IMG/VR virus record: IMGVR_UViG_3300025018_000105
Length of the DNA stretch: 64,000 nt
DNA from: a virus
Reading direction: 5' to 3' (one strand)
The notes beneath the pieces were generated by a model that saw nothing but the letters and a program-made list of their open reading frames with translations, was not told the DNA's origin and did no database searches. Below are positions 14,813 through 33,417 of this stretch, piece after piece (position 1 is the stretch's first letter; every line of letters starts with the position of its first letter). The position numbers and the translations under genes were made by a program.

Positions 14813-15409
14813 GTGAAGAAACTTCCTCGAATCATTGGCCTTACGGGGCGAAAGGGGGCGGGAAAGGACACCGGCGCAAAGGCGCTGATGTTGCAGGGCT
14901 ACGAGAACATGAAGTTCGCCGGAGCCTTGAAAGATATGCTCCGAACCCTGTTGTTCTATCAGGGTGCAGATAATATCGCGATCGAGCGGATGATCGAGGG
15001 TGATTTGAAAGAGCAACCCACCGATTACCTGAACGGTCAAACCCCGAGGCACGCGATGCAAACCTTGGGGACTGAGTGGGGTCGCAAGCTTATCGACGAC
15101 GGCATCTGGGTGTCGGCGACGATGAAGCGAGCGGTCAACGGTGGTAAGGTCGTTATCACCGATGTCCGCTTCCCCAATGAGAAGGCGGCGATCGAGAAGG
15201 TCGGTGGCGTCGTGATTGGAATCACGGCTGACTGGATCACGCCGAAAGAGGGAGAGCACGAGTCCGAAGCCTTGATCGATGACATGATTGCAAATCTGCA
15301 TCCGGGCCAGATGGTCACGAACCACTGGGCCGAGGGGGAAGAGCAACTGCTGGCGATCCAAGACTTTCGCTCACGTTTTCTCGCTCAACTAAGTGCGCTG
15401 GCGGATTAG
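14813..15409 (+). CDS. deoxynucleoside monophosphate kinase
   Basis: GLTGRKGAGKDT P-loop, PRHAMQTLGTEWGR, ITDVRFPNE. Confidence 0.9.
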   Translation: MKKLPRIIGLTGRKGAGKDTGAKALMLQGYENMKFAGALKDMLRTLLFYQGADNIAIERMIEGDLKEQPTDYLNGQTPRHAMQTLGTEWGRKLIDDGIWVSATMKRAVNGGKVVITDVRFPNEKAAIEKVGGVVIGITADWITPKEGEHESEALIDDMIANLHPGQMVTNHWAEGEEQLLAIQDFRSRFLAQLSALAD

Positions 15410-15453
15410 CCGCTCAGTGAGATCGAACACGACATAATAAACGGAGCCTCACT

Positions 15454-15990
15454 ATGTCGAAAATTACCATCACTATCCAAGACCTTGACCTCGAAACCGG
15501 CACCTATTCGGTAGACTTCGATGCAGAAGGCGCGCAAATCGATCAGGGGATCGCGACTGCTGCCTACTTCACCGGATATTACCTCTACACGCTTATCGAG
15601 GATGATGGTTTCATCGACGCGGTAGTAAAGTTTTCGCACGAGATTGCGAAAAATATGGAGGAGAACACGGACTCGCCGTGTCTCTCGGCTACCGAACCGG
15701 TGGTTGCCCGTCTCACTCTGGTGGACAAAGACATCAACACCGGGCGTTATCTTCCGCACCTTGAGTTCATGGGAGGCGATCCGGAAGGGCAGTATCTTCC
15801 GACGACGGCTCAGTGCGTTGGACTTTACATGCGTGCTCTGATGAGCGACACCAATTTCCAGCAAGCGTGCTGGGACTTTGCCGAAAAGCTGACGAAAGAC
15901 ACCGATGGGGCTGTCATCGTCAATGCCGAACACGCACTGGCAGACAACGATTCGGGCGAAGCTCCGGTCCGTATCGCAAACGAAGGATGA
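15454..15990 (+). CDS. hypothetical protein with internal duplication
   Basis: Two repeats of (I/L)T(I/L)xDxDxxTGxY...(AT/PT)(A/T)A..xG.Y. Confidence 0.65.
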   Translation: MSKITITIQDLDLETGTYSVDFDAEGAQIDQGIATAAYFTGYYLYTLIEDDGFIDAVVKFSHEIAKNMEENTDSPCLSATEPVVARLTLVDKDINTGRYLPHLEFMGGDPEGQYLPTTAQCVGLYMRALMSDTNFQQACWDFAEKLTKDTDGAVIVNAEHALADNDSGEAPVRIANEG

Positions 15991-15992
15991 AT

Positions 15993-16583
15993 ATGAAAGA
16001 CCAAATCAACCACGCGGACATGGTGGCCGGGCTCATGAAGCCCGGCCCGGAAATCCTCCAGAACCTCACGGCGGAAGAAGCCGACCTGTGGCATGGTGCC
16101 ACCGGTGTCGCCGGTGAAACCACCGAAGTCCTCGAAGCCATCACCCAGATGTTCATTACGGGCTCGCTCGATGTTCAGAACATGGTCGAAGAGCTTGGCG
16201 ACATCGAGTTCTACATGGAGGCTGTCCGTCAGAATATCGGCACCGCGCGCGATGAGATCATGCAGTTCCAAACCGAAAAGCATTTTACGATTGCCAATGA
16301 ACCGCTCGAATGTGCCTCGCTGCTGGCGATCGCAGGGGGCCAGCTTCTCGATACGGTCAAGAAGCATGTCGTATACAAGAAGCCGCTCGATCGCGAAGGC
16401 ATCCAATACAACCTCGCTAACCTTGAGGTTTGCGTCGGTGTCATCCGGCAAGCCATCCAAGTCACTCGCGAGGAAACGCTGGAAGCCAATATCGCCAAGC
16501 TGTCGGTCCGCTACAAGGGCCTGCAATACTCCGACAAGGCCGCTCAGGAGCGCGCTGACAAGGCGGAGGGCAATGGAGCGTGA
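15993..16583 (+). CDS. MazG-like NTP pyrophosphohydrolase
   Basis: GVAGETTE, VEELGDIEFY, VKKHVVY, EANIAKLSVRY, YSDKAAQERADK. Confidence 0.8.
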   Translation: MKDQINHADMVAGLMKPGPEILQNLTAEEADLWHGATGVAGETTEVLEAITQMFITGSLDVQNMVEELGDIEFYMEAVRQNIGTARDEIMQFQTEKHFTIANEPLECASLLAIAGGQLLDTVKKHVVYKKPLDREGIQYNLANLEVCVGVIRQAIQVTREETLEANIAKLSVRYKGLQYSDKAAQERADKAEGNGA

Positions 16584-16816
16584 TCAGTTTCATCCGCCTC
16601 GAAGTTGATGGCCTCGGCGTTGCTTTCATCGATCCCCAGAGGATCATGGCAGTTACGGCGGACCCTTCCCACCCCACACGTTCGGTTATTGTATACGACA
16701 ACGCATCAAGGGCCCCGGAGCTTCTTCCGATCGACAGCGAGCCTGATGAATTGATGCAGGAGATCGAACGCGTCGTCCCCGGAGCGAAGTCGTTTCATCT
16801 TCGCGGTTTTCCTTGA
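16580..16816 (+). CDS. hypothetical protein
   Basis: GTGA coupling. Confidence 0.55.
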   Translation: MISFIRLEVDGLGVAFIDPQRIMAVTADPSHPTRSVIVYDNASRAPELLPIDSEPDELMQEIERVVPGAKSFHLRGFP

Positions 16817-16841
16817 CATGAGCCGCAATTTTTAATATAAG
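16813..16841 (+). promoter_or_regulatory. promoter with CCGCAATTTTT in the spacer
   Basis: TTGACA-tgagccgcaatttttaa-TATAAG, 17-nt spacer. Confidence 0.75.
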
Positions 16842-16851
16842 AGAGGACGTT

Positions 16852-16944
16852 ATGGTAACCGAAATAAACCTTAAGGTAATGGGAACAGCCTGTGCATTCT
16901 GCTTGGCCATGCTCCTGTTGGTGAACTACGCTCTGACAAGCTGA
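16852..16944 (+). CDS. 30-aa hydrophobic peptide (not in ORF track)
   Basis: GAGAGG RBS right after the promoter; TGATG coupling to the next ORF. Confidence 0.5.
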   Translation: MVTEINLKVMGTACAFCLAMLLLVNYALTS

Positions 16945-17168
16945 TGGCTCGCCTGAGAATACGCGACGCGATCTACATCGACGACATGGACCCGAACGAC
17001 ACCCCCACACCTACCGCGTCCACAACCGAGCTTACCGCATTCGATGGTGAGAACTGGGTCGTAACGCGTGAAGAAGACCCCTACGCAGGACTTAACCGGG
17101 GCCAGCGCCGTAAGGCCATGGCCGTTGAATCTCGCGCTCATCGAAAGGCAAAACGTGGCCGAATCTGA
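16944..17168 (+). CDS. hypothetical protein, basic C-terminus
   Basis: Coupled start. Confidence 0.6.
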   Translation: MARLRIRDAIYIDDMDPNDTPTPTASTTELTAFDGENWVVTREEDPYAGLNRGQRRKAMAVESRAHRKAKRGRI

Positions 17169-17445
17169 TACACCCCATGGTTACCACATCGCCAAAATCG
17201 CTCGCGGCGTCTATGGCGAAGACTCCAAGATTTACGAAGAGATCGATGAGTTCGTTGACGCTCTTGATCAAGGCGTCGCGATCATGGCTCTGGTAGAACT
17301 TTCAGACGTGATCGGGGCCATCAAGGGCTGGTTGGTCAAGAACCATCCGTCCATCACTCTCGACGATCTCATTGCCATGTCTGCGGTGACCGACCGGGCC
17401 TTCGAAAGCGGGGCCCGCAAGCCCAAAGTCGTGGAGGATGAGTGA
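17153..17445 (+). CDS. small MazG-like (all-alpha NTP-PPase) protein
   Basis: GYHIAKIARG..G..SKIYEEIDEFVDA...LVELSDVIGA: EE-x2-E...E-x2-D metal-binding pattern; GTG start. Confidence 0.6.
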
Positions 17446-17618
17446 TGGACGGCTGGTGGGATGACGGCGGCTTTGATGATTTTGATGACCGGGCTGAGTG
17501 CCCGTGTTGTGGTGAAGTCGTCCCGCTTGATCATCTCGATACGGACAGCGGTGATTGTATCGGATGCGAAGACCGTCGCGAGCAAGAGGAATGGGAACAG
17601 TATGACGCCGAAGATTGA
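17445..17618 (+). CDS. 57-aa acidic zinc-ribbon peptide (not in ORF track)
   Basis: CPCC...CIGC; TGATG coupling; overlaps the next start. Confidence 0.6.
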   Translation: MDGWWDDGGFDDFDDRAECPCCGEVVPLDHLDTDSGDCIGCEDRREQEEWEQYDAED

Positions 17619-18207
17619 TTACCCGCTGCTGGGGCAGGCTGTCTCAGAATACGTCAAGCGTGGCTACCGCTACGTTGAAGTTCCGTGGCTGGTGAAACCC
17701 CACGACATCTACGCGACGCTGGACGAACGGGCCGCCTGTATTCGGACCGGGTTTCAGGTTGATCTTGCGGGGCGTAAGGAGATGCACCCTTGGCGCGAAG
17801 AGAAAGGCAACTGTCTCGTCGGTTCGGCCGAGCAAGGTTTCCTGTCTATGAACCTCCCACCTGACGCTTACGTCGGCGTAACGCCATGCTTCCGTTGGGA
17901 AAACAAGACCGATCTCCTGACACGCGACTACTTCATGAAGGTCGAGCTTTTCGTCACGAGTGAAGAGGCTGACCTTTCTCGGGTGATGGACGATGCACAC
18001 GAAGTGATGCAGATCATTGGCGAGGCGAATGAGCCCAAGTTCACCATCGACGTTGAAGAGACTCGTGATGGATTCGATTTCATGCTTGCAGGCATTGAAA
18101 TTGGTTCATACGGTGAACGCGCCACTTCAAACCAAGCGTGGATTTACGGAACCGGCTTGGCATTGCCGCGTTTCAGCGTGGCCAAGGCATTGGCCAGAAT
18201 AACCTAA
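17602..18207 (+). CDS. stand-alone class II aminoacyl-tRNA-synthetase-like catalytic domain (SerRS/AsnA-like)
   Basis: Motif 1-like GYRYVEVPWLV, LVGSAEQ, motif 2 TPCFRWE...FMKVEL, motif 3 GTGLALPR; only 201 aa with no tRNA-binding domain. Confidence 0.75.
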   Translation: MTPKIDYPLLGQAVSEYVKRGYRYVEVPWLVKPHDIYATLDERAACIRTGFQVDLAGRKEMHPWREEKGNCLVGSAEQGFLSMNLPPDAYVGVTPCFRWENKTDLLTRDYFMKVELFVTSEEADLSRVMDDAHEVMQIIGEANEPKFTIDVEETRDGFDFMLAGIEIGSYGERATSNQAWIYGTGLALPRFSVAKALARIT

Positions 18208-18250
18208 GTTCTGTCAAGGTTAAAATTTGCAGGCAGAGTAAATTCATTCC

Positions 18251-18279
18251 TTGAAGTGAACCGCAATTTTTAGTATACT
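18251..18279 (+). promoter_or_regulatory. nrdA promoter with CCGCAATTTTT in the spacer
   Basis: TTGAAG-tgaaccgcaatttttag-TATACT, 17-nt spacer. Confidence 0.7.
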
Positions 18280-18322
18280 GATAGACCTTTCACGGTTCAC
18301 TCCAGCTACGGATAAAAACACT

Positions 18323-20089
18323 ATGCCAGTCTCCCCGAACGAGGTCGCTATTGACCTCGGGCGCGACGCCCTGCTGTCCGCTCACGCCATTGAAACCCTC
18401 CGAGATCGTTACCTCGTGGAGGGAGAGACCAGCCCCCAGCAAGCATTCGCACGAGCCGCTGCTGCCTTCGCAGACGACGCGGCACACGCGCAGCGTCTTT
18501 ACGACTATGCGAGCAAAGGCTGGTTCATGTTCGCCACACCGCTGCTTTCGAATGGCGGAACATCGCGCGGGCTGCCGATTTCCTGCTATCTCAATTACAT
18601 GGCCGACAGCCGCGCAGGTATCAACCAACACTACGAAGAGACCTCTTGGCTCTCCAGCCTTGGTGGTGGCGTTGGTGGCTATATCGGTGCCCGAGGACCA
18701 GAAGCCACGTCGCGTGGCTCGGCGTCCAGTGGTGCCATCCCGTTCATCGCTGTTCTCGATCGCATGATGCTCGCCTTCTCGCAGGGTAAGACGCGTCGTG
18801 GTTCCTATGCGGCCTACCTCGACATCTCGCACCCTGAGATCGATGAGTTCCTTGAAATCCGCAAGCCGTCGGGAGGGGATGCAAACCGCAAGGCGCTCAA
18901 CCTCCACCACGCCGTGGTTATCACCGACGAGTTCATGCACGCCTGCATCAACGACGAGGATTGGGAACTCAAGAGTCCAAAGACCGGACACGTCAAGAAG
19001 GTCGTCAGCGCTCGTGGTCTTATGCGTAAGATCGTCGAAACGCGTCACCAGACCGGCGAGCCCTTCATTCTGTTTAAGGATACAGCCCAACGGGCCCTGC
19101 CGGAGCCGTTGAAGGCCAAGGGCCTTACGATCAATCAGTCCAACCTCTGCACCGAAATTATGCTGCCCACGTCGGCTGATCGCACTGCCGTGTGTTGCCT
19201 GTCAAGCACCAACCTCACCAAGTTCGATGAGTGGAAGGACGATCCTCTGTTCATCGAAGACCTCATGCGGATGCTCGACAACACGCTTGACGACTTCATC
19301 GCAAAGGCTCCTCCTGAGCTTTGGCGTGCCGTCAACTCAGCGCGAAATGAGCGCTCGGTCGGATTGGGGGCGATGGGTCTACAAACCTACCTGCAAGACA
19401 AGATGCTTGTCTGGGGCGGTGACACAGCGCGTGCCTACAACGTGATGATCTTTGAGCACCTACAAGCCAAGACCGTCGAAGCCTCACTTAAGCTAGGACG
19501 TGAGCGTGGGGAAGCGCCGGACATGGAAGGAACAGGGCACCGCTTCTCGCACCGCATGGCCGTTGCTCCGAACGCTTCGTCGTCAATCTTCGTGCCAGAC
19601 GGTCCTATCTCGCCGTCAATCGAACAGTTTCCCGAAAACATCTTTATCCACAAAACACTTTCGGGATCACACAAGGTTTACAACCCGGCGCTCAAAAATC
19701 TGCTGGCCAGCAAGGGCAAGGACGAGTCGAAAGTCTGGAAGTCGATCCTCGCCAACGACGGATCGGTGCAGCATCTCGACTTTCTTTCGGATCACGAAAA
19801 GCGTGTCTTCCTCACGGCTTTCGAGACAGACCAGCGCCTCACCATCCAGATGGCAAACGATCGCGCTGGCTTCGTGGATCAGGGGGTTAGCCTGAACCTG
19901 TCGTTCCCGGCCTACGTCGATGCTGATTACCTTCTCGAATGTCACTTCATGGCGTGGGCTGGTGGCACCAAAAGCCTCTACTACGTCCGTTCGAAGACGT
20001 TGAAGAAGGCAGAGAACATGAACACCAAAGTGGCACAGATGGAACTCATTGCGCCCGAACCAGAGGAGTGCCTTGCCTGTGAAGGATGA
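18323..20089 (+). CDS. nrdA: ribonucleotide reductase class Ia alpha subunit (no ATP cone)
   Basis: ATPLLSNGG, PISCYL, NLCTEI, VAPNASSS, KSLYYVRS, C-terminal CLACEG. Confidence 0.95.
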   Translation: MPVSPNEVAIDLGRDALLSAHAIETLRDRYLVEGETSPQQAFARAAAAFADDAAHAQRLYDYASKGWFMFATPLLSNGGTSRGLPISCYLNYMADSRAGINQHYEETSWLSSLGGGVGGYIGARGPEATSRGSASSGAIPFIAVLDRMMLAFSQGKTRRGSYAAYLDISHPEIDEFLEIRKPSGGDANRKALNLHHAVVITDEFMHACINDEDWELKSPKTGHVKKVVSARGLMRKIVETRHQTGEPFILFKDTAQRALPEPLKAKGLTINQSNLCTEIMLPTSADRTAVCCLSSTNLTKFDEWKDDPLFIEDLMRMLDNTLDDFIAKAPPELWRAVNSARNERSVGLGAMGLQTYLQDKMLVWGGDTARAYNVMIFEHLQAKTVEASLKLGRERGEAPDMEGTGHRFSHRMAVAPNASSSIFVPDGPISPSIEQFPENIFIHKTLSGSHKVYNPALKNLLASKGKDESKVWKSILANDGSVQHLDFLSDHEKRVFLTAFETDQRLTIQMANDRAGFVDQGVSLNLSFPAYVDADYLLECHFMAWAGGTKSLYYVRSKTLKKAENMNTKVAQMELIAPEPEECLACEG

Positions 20090-20501
20090 TCCAGATTTTC
20101 AGCCTGTTGTCGGTGACATCGTTGAATTAGCTCACGAAGAGGACTGCATTGTCCCGGCTGGAGAATACGAGGTGACGCAGGTCAACCCGGATGGCACTTT
20201 CCACGTCGGTGGAAACACGGCTGTTCACCCGCGTCGCGTCATGGCGCGTTGGCACGAACACCTAGCGGTTCGCCTGAGTGGTCGGGTCATAGGACTCGAA
20301 TACGAGTATGAGCTTGACCCGTCTCAATACGATGAAGGCGATCCCACTACTACCACCCGTCTCGTTTGGGGTCGGGTTATCGACGGCGGCTACGGCGACT
20401 GGGGTGAAGAAATCGTCTTCGTCGAAAACATCCACATCAAGGGCGAAATATGGGCTGCCGCCCCAGACGCCATTCACACAATTATGCCGGAGAACTATTG
20501 A
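20079..20501 (+). CDS. hypothetical protein inserted between nrdA and nrdB
   Basis: GAGGAG RBS and GTG start; overlaps both neighbours. Confidence 0.6.
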   Translation: MKDDPDFQPVVGDIVELAHEEDCIVPAGEYEVTQVNPDGTFHVGGNTAVHPRRVMARWHEHLAVRLSGRVIGLEYEYELDPSQYDEGDPTTTTRLVWGRVIDGGYGDWGEEIVFVENIHIKGEIWAAAPDAIHTIMPENY

Positions 20502-28217: not shown

Positions 28218-28236
28218 TGTCAACCAAAAATTGCGG
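28218..28236 (-). promoter_or_regulatory. lysis-cassette promoter with upstream CCGCAATTTTT
   Basis: Reverse complement reads ccgcaatttttggTTGACA. Confidence 0.55.
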
Positions 28237-33388: not shown

Positions 33389-33417
33389 TGTATACTAAAA
33401 ATTGCGCTTCGTGTCAA
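33389..33417 (-). promoter_or_regulatory. tail-fibre promoter with GCGCAATTTTT in the spacer
   Basis: TTGACA-cgaagcgcaatttttag-TATACA, 17-nt spacer. Confidence 0.75.

Follow-up and report, generated by a model that had tools for sequence, protein, structure and literature searches.

A seryl-tRNA synthetase-like catalytic core and a MazG/HisE-like protein form a conserved gene pair in phages

What does a phage do with a class II aminoacyl-tRNA synthetase (aaRS) that has kept its catalytic core and lost its tRNA-binding arm? This question is raised by a 64,000-nucleotide stretch of DNA from a virus (IMG/VR record IMGVR_UViG_3300025018_000105), which we refer to at its full length as the window. 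At 16813-18207 of the window, our ORF reading found five + strand open reading frames (ORFs) with overlapping ends, here called g1 to g5. The last of them, g5 (17602..18207, + strand), encodes a seryl-tRNA synthetase (SerRS)-like class II core of 201 amino acids (aa), with motifs 1, 2 and 3 and a TxE-type loop and without a tRNA-binding arm. The third, g3 (17155..17445, + strand, GTG start), encodes a 96-aa protein that is the obligate partner of g5 and is predicted to be an all-alpha nucleoside triphosphate (NTP) pyrophosphatase of the MazG/HisE type. An earlier note on the window, made from its sequence, had described a self-contained operon of five translationally coupled genes. All five overlapping ORFs and their junctions are present where that note had placed them, but the conserved unit consists of two genes, g3 and g5.

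The conserved unit is a pair of genes

We assembled 98 loci (7 annotated phages, 80 viral contigs, 10 genome contigs and the window) and found a MazG-like gene on the same strand as the aaRS-like gene and less than 2 kb away from it in 97 of them; in the sole exception, the aaRS-like gene lies at base 2 of its contig. The two genes overlap or are at most 60 nt apart in 45 loci, are separated by a gap of 61-700 nt in 46 and by more than 700 nt in 4. Their order is reversed in 8 loci, and in 2 they form a single ORF. The pair is fused in two or three lineages: in the fusion proteins, which are gp153 of MaMV-DH01 and the products of L025 and P0274, the C terminus of the aaRS-like protein is joined straight to the GYH start of the MazG-like domain. 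A tblastn search detected relatives of g5 in 270 phage records and relatives of g3 in 269, with an identical genus profile that includes Escherichia, Acinetobacter, Caulobacter, Pectobacterium, Cronobacter, Brevundimonas and others. A Mantel comparison of the distance matrices for the two proteins showed a correlation (r 0.50, against a maximum of 0.13 over 999 permutations). Co-occurrence of the MazG-like and aaRS-like genes across phages, which the earlier note had named as a test of its proposal, is therefore borne out by the loci, the phage records and the natural fusions. The aaRS-like family comprises 1,095 clusters at 50% identity (E <= 1e-30).

No third gene common to all loci was found among the neighbours of the pair, and the downstream neighbours are heterogeneous across 69 non-redundant loci. 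Genes of nucleotide metabolism and replication often adjoin the phage copies, examples being those for ribonucleotide reductase (RNR), deoxynucleoside monophosphate (dNMP) kinase, ThyX, and a helicase or primase. We considered RNR as a general linked gene and rejected it, because it lies downstream in merely 4 of the 69 loci. Between the MazG-like and aaRS-like genes there is an insertion hot-spot, where the gaps of 61-700 nt hold unrelated small ORFs (as in L008-L021, L027, L036, L056, L071 and L083); a Pfam scan of such intervening ORFs found no family.

The nearest isolate to the window is Erythrobacter phage vB_EliS-L02 (hereafter L02; OL955261), in which the homologues of g3 and g5 are 82-86% identical at the amino-acid level. 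The GTG start of g3 and the ATG start of g5 match those of the homologous genes of L02.

g5 is a SerRS-like class II catalytic core

g5 matched PHROG 4806, a family labelled ‘histidyl tRNA synthetase’, with an E value of 8.5e-39. It had no Pfam or NCBIfam match at threshold, neither Seryl_tRNA_N nor TIGR00414 being found, and a search of the PDB with the single sequence returned noise alone. A profile built from 51 sequences of the g5 family found SerRS chains in the PDB, with a best E value of 2.8e-6, and an hhalign comparison of the family to three bacterial SerRS gave a probability of 96.7% and an E value of 5e-10, with SerRS residues 164-401 alone being aligned. The same family profile finds SerRS and not LysRS. 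The AlphaFold2 (AF2) model of g5, which shows the antiparallel beta-sheet core of the class II fold and has a predicted local distance difference test score (pLDDT) of 92.6, gave at least 500 Foldseek matches at E <= 0.001, and every one among the matches listed was a class II aaRS. With VIA-align, the model matched SerRS structures at Z 17.1-18.5 and a root-mean-square deviation of 2.4-2.5 Å over about 180 of its 201 residues. Other class II relatives gave lower Z scores: HisZ (16.8-17.4), PylRS (16.5), the amino acid:[carrier protein] ligase Bll0957 (15.4), methanogen SerRS (14.5), and, lower still, the Pol gamma accessory subunit (13.8), GenX (13.7) and AsnA (12.9-13.8).

In the hhalign alignment, GSAEQ of g5 is paired with PTSEV of SerRS in the TxE loop, PCFRxE with PCFRSE and FMKVE with FNKVE in motif 2, and GTGLALPR with GSGLAVGR in motif 3. 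We counted conservation over 88 unique family members with a mean identity of 39%, and found that T39, S75, E77, Q78, R98, F111, K113, E115, E166, S169, R173 and T184 are invariant in all 88. Motif 3 (G183-T184-G185...R190) is kept, with R190 present in 87 members, the motif 1 proline P28 is kept in 83, and E100 is E or D in 76. In SerRS, serine and ATP are contacted by the TxE glutamate, the glutamate of F.K.E and the Ser/Thr of NG(S/T)G, and the contacts in the Thermus thermophilus enzyme are Glu239, Glu279 and Thr380. g5 residues E77, E115 and T184, matched to these positions through the alignment, may correspond to the sites at which SerRS binds its serine by the amino group and the hydroxyl.

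Bacterial SerRS has about 425 aa and a coiled-coil arm, whereas the sequence of g5 begins at motif 1, with the N-terminal arm absent. The distance from the motif-2 arginine to the phenylalanine is 13 residues in g5 against 19 in SerRS, so that the g5 loop is about six residues shorter; g5 also has reduced insertions in the stretch from motif 2 to motif 3. Judged by its profile, its fold and its motifs, g5 is a class II aaRS catalytic core that is closest to bacterial SerRS, and it is the smallest SerRS-derived core found in this analysis. These results agree with the earlier description of the last gene as a minimal class II core with motifs 2 and 3 intact and no tRNA-binding or anticodon domain. 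EpmA and AsnA, which the earlier note had named among tRNA-independent paralogues, belong to the LysRS and AspRS lineages; the closest relative of g5 is SerRS.

In CbK-like Caulobacter and Brevundimonas phages (L003:2743-3597 of CcrPW; P0095; P0181), the N terminus of the aaRS-like protein bears one or two helix-hairpin-helix domains that resemble the C-terminal domain of the RNA polymerase alpha subunit (alpha-CTD). The match to this family, PF03118, reached 25.9 bits against a cut-off of 23.8.

g3 resembles MazG and HisE pyrophosphatases

g3 matched PHROG 6408, a family of unknown function, with an E value of 8e-34. Its sequence carries a metal-binding pattern, EExxE..D ... ExxD, in which K25, E28, E29 and E32 are present in 87 of 87 unique sequences, E48 and D51 in 86 of them, and D35 is D or E in all. 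Outside the metal site, Y10, H11 and K25 are invariant. The Pfam family PRA-PH was matched by 12 of 30 g3 homologues (best E 4e-4) and MazG by 3 of 30, a profile search of the PDB found Sulfolobus MazG (1vmg) at E 0.12, and the neighbours of g3 in the Atlas bear PRA-PH or MazG. The AF2 model of g3 is a three-helix bundle with a pLDDT of 87.8. In its modelled helical bundle and its acidic pattern, g3 resembles MazG and HisE pyrophosphatases, whose fold is of the four-helix-bundle type; it differs from them in having about 85 residues and three helices, in lying below the Pfam thresholds, and in an invariant GYH near the N terminus, in K25 and in TxRAF..G.R at the C terminus, which we did not see in the MazG and HisE matches. 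The evidence that places g3 in the MazG/HisE superfamily is consistent, although each piece of it is weak. The earlier note had called the third gene MazG-like, and the analysis supports that name.

One MazG-like homologue (L069:5309-5989) has a C-terminal stretch that resembles the peptidyl-tRNA hydrolase domain of RF-1 but is without GGQ, which scored 22.8 bits, below the cut-off of 35, and is a single case. The C-terminal extensions of the MazG-like homologues matched no Pfam family and, except for one pair, are unrelated to each other.

Cellular copies and gene context

A few copies of the pair are found in bacteria. In Saccharibacteria the pair lies near rpsG, rpoC, dnaE and a winged helix-turn-helix-Nudix gene, and in a metagenome-assembled genome of Magnetococcales it lies near the genes for peptidyl-tRNA hydrolase (Pth) and NAD(P)HX dehydratase. 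Ribosomal genes lie near the bacterial copies, as do genes for a SpoU methylase, an AAA_28 kinase and a Nudix protein. In each of the three bacterial carriers searched there is a full-length SerRS as well, with a score above the TIGR00414 cut-off, and the g5 family is therefore not a replacement for SerRS. A profile search of Patescibacteria gave a match in 1 of the 301 genomes sampled from the phylum and in 2 of 14 genomes of the taxonomic family concerned. We considered a general housekeeping role in bacteria of the candidate phyla radiation and rejected it on the basis of this sporadic distribution.

There are no tRNA genes in the 64-kb window. In phage L02, about 30 tRNA genes lie in one cluster (69.5-75.7 kb of OL955261), approximately 30 kb from the pair.

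Comparison with known systems

Several known systems share features with the pair. Bacterial SerRS, the best match to g5 by profile, hhalign and structure, has motifs 1-3 and the TxE-type loop in common with it; the constant MazG-like partner sets the g5 family apart from SerRS. Like g5, amino acid:[carrier protein] ligases such as Bradyrhizobium Bll0957 (PDB 3MEY) are SerRS-derived cores that have lost the tRNA-binding domain. These tRNA-independent ligases were reportedly described by Mocibob and colleagues in 2010; they derive from the zinc-dependent, methanogen-type SerRS and adjoin carrier-protein genes. g5 is closer to the bacterial type of SerRS and has a MazG-like partner, and the PP-binding (phosphopantetheine) family was absent from the 25 most frequent of the 29 families matched by the downstream neighbours at the 69 loci.

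The histidine pathway offers another likeness, in that HisZ, a class II paralogue without an anticodon domain, and HisE, a small pyrophosphatase of the MazG superfamily, act in one pathway. HisE (1yvw) ranks high among the matches of g3, as HisZ does among the structural matches of g5. HisZ, however, is non-catalytic (PMC9437257), whereas the catalytic residues of g5 are invariant and its sequence resembles SerRS and not HisRS; the annotated or scanned neighbours of the pair showed no HisG-type gene. EpmA/GenX (PoxA) and AsnA are also tRNA-independent class II cores, which pass the adenylate to a lysine of elongation factor P (EF-P) or to ammonia, but they descend from LysRS and AspRS, have about 300-330 aa and no MazG partner, and match the g5 model less well. 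New chemistry has come to light with each of the tRNA-independent relatives of the synthetases, namely AsnA, HisZ, EpmA and the amino acid:[carrier protein] ligases.

A proposed two-part enzyme and its alternatives

The reading that we favour, and to which we give an even chance, is that g3 and g5 make up one two-part enzyme that adenylates an amino acid, probably serine, independently of tRNA. Both halves have invariant active sites, which points to catalysis. From the SerRS-type residues of g5 we read an alpha-amino acid as substrate, probably serine, and as the tRNA arm has been lost, ordinary charging of tRNA is disfavoured and a non-tRNA acceptor most likely. The strict tie to an NTP pyrophosphatase suggests that the same pathway has a step that involves a nucleotide. 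In the proposed mechanism, g5 would bind ATP together with a small alpha-amino acid, L-serine being the likeliest, and form the aminoacyl-adenylate. SerRS holds tRNA with its coiled-coil arm and motif-2 loop; as g5 has lost the former and a portion of the latter, it would most likely hand the aminoacyl group to an acceptor other than tRNA. g3 would most likely cleave the alpha-beta bond of a nucleoside triphosphate that may be a substrate, acceptor or product of the same pathway. In the version that we prefer, this compound would be an aminoacylated or otherwise modified nucleotide. The fold, the conserved active sites, the obligate linkage and the natural fusions are observed; serine as the substrate, the independence from tRNA and the nucleotide as acceptor are inferences. 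The more specific proposal that the pair joins serine or another small amino acid like it to a free nucleotide, and not to tRNA, and trims the triphosphate of that nucleotide is a tentative one that we consider doubtful as it stands. If it is true, the pair would represent a new branch of aminoacyl-nucleotide metabolism, carried by a mobile cassette that is common to more than 1,000 lineages of large phages and to a few bacteria with reduced genomes.

A number of observations weigh against the two-part enzyme. The serine specificity is read from three aligned residues and from the contacts in T. thermophilus SerRS. On the side of g3, the match to Pfam PRA-PH scored 13.8 bits, below the cut-off of 21.3 bits, and the fold matches are weak: MazG and HisE head the Foldseek list with E values above 1, and the VIA-align match to HisE (1yvw; Z 5.6) lies amid many unrelated helical matches. 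Five of five carrier phages checked encode tRNAs, from 2 to about 30 of them, and the RF-1-like domain of L069, together with the Magnetococcales copy near Pth, may point to a link to tRNA or to the ribosome. The fusion to alpha-CTD-like domains in CbK-like phages hints at a macromolecular partner, either nucleic acid or RNA polymerase.

In one alternative, the pair acts on tRNA or on the 3' end of another RNA: the mini-SerRS would still aminoacylate the acceptor stem of a host or phage tRNA, with a partner supplying the binding, and the pyrophosphatase would prepare or repair an RNA or nucleotide end, for example after damage by a host toxin. The nearest relative of g5 is after all a genuine tRNA ligase, and this alternative would account for the tRNAs of the carriers checked, for the weak RF-1-like domain fused to a MazG-like protein, for the Pth, SpoU methylase and ribosomal genes near the bacterial copies, and for the basic, Arg-rich g2 that lies directly upstream in the clade of the window. 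We nevertheless think it unlikely. The coiled-coil arm is absent and the motif-2 loop shortened, large phages carry tRNAs anyway, the window is without a tRNA gene, and the RF-1 match is a single one, under the Pfam threshold and without GGQ. Borel and colleagues reportedly found in 1994 that removal of the arm from E. coli SerRS nearly abolishes tRNA charging and spares serine activation, which also counts against charging by an armless core. Whether the pair instead makes and removes a signal can be weighed in a similar manner. Class II synthetases make diadenosine tetraphosphate (Ap4A) from the aminoacyl-adenylate and MazG-type enzymes clear non-canonical NTPs; with these precedents, the core might make a dinucleoside polyphosphate of the Ap4A type or aminoacylate an immune nucleotide signal, and the MazG-like protein might hydrolyse that compound or a toxic NTP analogue, a form of counter-defence. 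The pair is overwhelmingly phage-borne and moves as a cassette between unrelated phage lineages, as such a role would have it. We found, however, no match to PADLOC or to known anti-defence genes, chromosomal copies lie among housekeeping genes in Saccharibacteria and Magnetococcales, and the phage copies are often placed among nucleotide-metabolism and replication genes and not among early anti-defence genes, so that we regard this alternative, which the earlier note had raised as a dinucleotide signal in counter-defence, as improbable.

The remaining alternatives take their models from other relatives of the class II core. In one, which we judge to be highly improbable, g5 is an AsnA-like amidoligase that adenylates a carboxylate on a nucleotide, cofactor or side chain for attack by ammonia or an amine, while the MazG/HisE-like enzyme processes the nucleotide. 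AsnA (Z 12.9-13.8) is a precedent for a class II core that works without tRNA, and some neighbours of the pair do belong to nucleotide or NAD metabolism (Nudix, AAA_28 kinase and NAD(P)HX dehydratase in bacteria; RNR, dNMP kinase and ThyX in phages). The glutamate of the TxE loop, which binds the alpha-amino group, is nonetheless invariant, the pattern is SerRS-like and not AspRS-like, and RNR is downstream in those 4 of the 69 loci alone. The full catalytic metal site of g3, which a mere substrate would not need, speaks against a further alternative, in which an EpmA/GenX-like enzyme loads an amino acid onto a protein lysine, possibly K25 of the MazG-like protein, a lysine of g4 or one of a host factor; most carriers lack g4, and no carrier-protein gene appeared among the 25 most frequent families of the downstream neighbours. 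EpmA/GenX (Z 13.7) and the amino acid:[carrier protein] ligases (Z 15.4) are precedents for such chemistry, and the obligate partner has Y10, H11 and K25 invariant outside its metal site, but we see very little probability in this explanation. As remote, in our judgement, is a role of the aaRS-like protein as a non-catalytic ligand sensor or scaffold that regulates the pyrophosphatase or a factor of replication or transcription, in the manner of HisZ or of the Pol gamma accessory subunit. Against such a role, the catalytic residues of adenylate formation do not vary across the 88 divergent sequences, and no HisG-like partner was seen among the annotated or scanned neighbours. It would be in keeping with the structural matches to HisZ (Z 16.8-17.4) and the Pol gamma accessory subunit (Z 13.8), with the place of HisZ and HisE in one pathway, with the alpha-CTD-like domain fused in CbK-like phages, and with the helicase or primase genes that adjoin the pair in several phages. 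HisZ itself has no adenylation activity and regulates HisG (PMC9437257).

Annotation and distribution of the pair

The public labels for the family are inconsistent: PHROG 4806 and the phage records variously use ‘histidyl tRNA synthetase’, ‘seryl-tRNA synthetase’ and ‘RNA polymerase alpha subunit C-terminal domain protein’. In L02, the start of the aaRS-like gene (L001:5088-5609; OL955261, UIS25232.1) is annotated 29 codons too late. Our literature search returned genome notes alone and no functional study of the pair. A genome note calls a relative of g5 SerRS (PMC8953757), a review of aaRS paralogues makes no mention of the g5 family (PMC9437257), and the main text of the HIDEN-SEQ preprint does not mention the genes of the pair. 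The carriers number about 270 isolated phages and include E. coli and Acinetobacter phages that feature in phage-therapy studies. Once the product is identified, hundreds of annotations would be put right, and a new modification of nucleotides or amino acids that serves during infection could come to light.

Lineage-specific genes and promoter-like sites

The other three genes of the block are lineage-specific passengers or accessories that stand outside the conserved pair. g1 (16852..16944, + strand) encodes a hydrophobic peptide of 30 aa, with a grand average of hydropathy of 1.39, behind a GAGG ribosome-binding site, and its sole homologue, an ORF of 28 aa, occupies the corresponding place in L02. 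g2 (16944..17168, + strand) encodes a 74-aa protein with an isoelectric point of 9.4, a basic C terminus and the conserved motif YxG(L/M)NRxQRRxAxAxExR. It had no Pfam, PHROG, NCBIfam or PADLOC match, and it lies directly upstream of the MazG-like gene in 14 of the 98 loci, all of them of the clade of the window. The peptide and the basic protein are thus specific to this clade, and the five genes that the earlier note had joined are not conserved as a functional unit. g4 (17445..17618, + strand, with an ATG start at 17445 or a GTG start at 17442) encodes a 57-aa protein with an isoelectric point of 4.05, 22 acidic residues and a CxxC-x17-CxxC pattern, a putative Zn-ribbon. A homologue with equal cysteine spacing is found in L008 and analogous acidic, cysteine-rich ORFs in L014-L017; tblastn of g4 in 50,697 phage records gave no match. 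In L02 g4 is absent, and the stop of the MazG-like gene overlaps the start of the aaRS-like gene. g4 is a variable insert between the two core genes, and since neither the nearest relative nor most of the carriers have it, it cannot act as the acceptor for the family in general.

The junctions of the five genes are tight. g1 and g2 meet at TGATG, with 1 nt in common, g2 and g3 overlap by 14 nt, g3 and g4 meet at TGATG, and g4 and g5 overlap by 17 nt. Ahead of g1 we read a promoter-like site at 16813..16841 (+), in which TTGACA (16813-16818) is followed by a 17-nt spacer and TATAAG, and which contains the phage-specific 17-nt core CCGCAATTTTTAATATA at 16823-16839 (+). The next promoter-like site, at 18251..18279 (+), was called by the scanner as TTGAAG-17-TATACT ahead of the RNR gene; it bears the same 17-nt core and marks the downstream limit of the g1-g5 unit. 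A motif count placed copies of the core, CCGCAATTTTTARTATA, at 16823-16839 (+), 18261-18277, 33391-33407 (-) and 28220-28236 (-). The core covers the spacer and the -10 region of the promoter-like sites, and as there are 3-4 copies in the window against 0.08 expected by chance, CCGCAATTTTTARTATA is probably the mark of a promoter class of this phage. The consensus scanner made no call at 16813, because the final base of the -10 hexamer is G and not T. This is the site that the earlier note had called a consensus promoter. From the layout of the genes and sites, g1-g5 is plausible as a transcription unit; no terminator was predicted at either end of the block, which leaves the claim that the operon is self-contained unsupported. 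An Rfam scan of 15000-20500 found no match.

Upstream of the block, a 78-aa ORF (16580-16816, +) stops within the -35 hexamer of the site at 16813; it had no family match, and its C terminus (..VPGAKSFHL..) is kept in phage L02. A second, larger MazG-type gene (15990-16583, +; 197 aa) lies 0.6 kb upstream and matched PHROG 229 with an E value of 5e-31; an hhalign comparison of the g3 family with its product found nothing. The phage of the window thus has two genes of the MazG superfamily close by each other, and the same arrangement is found in phages L02 and RXM.

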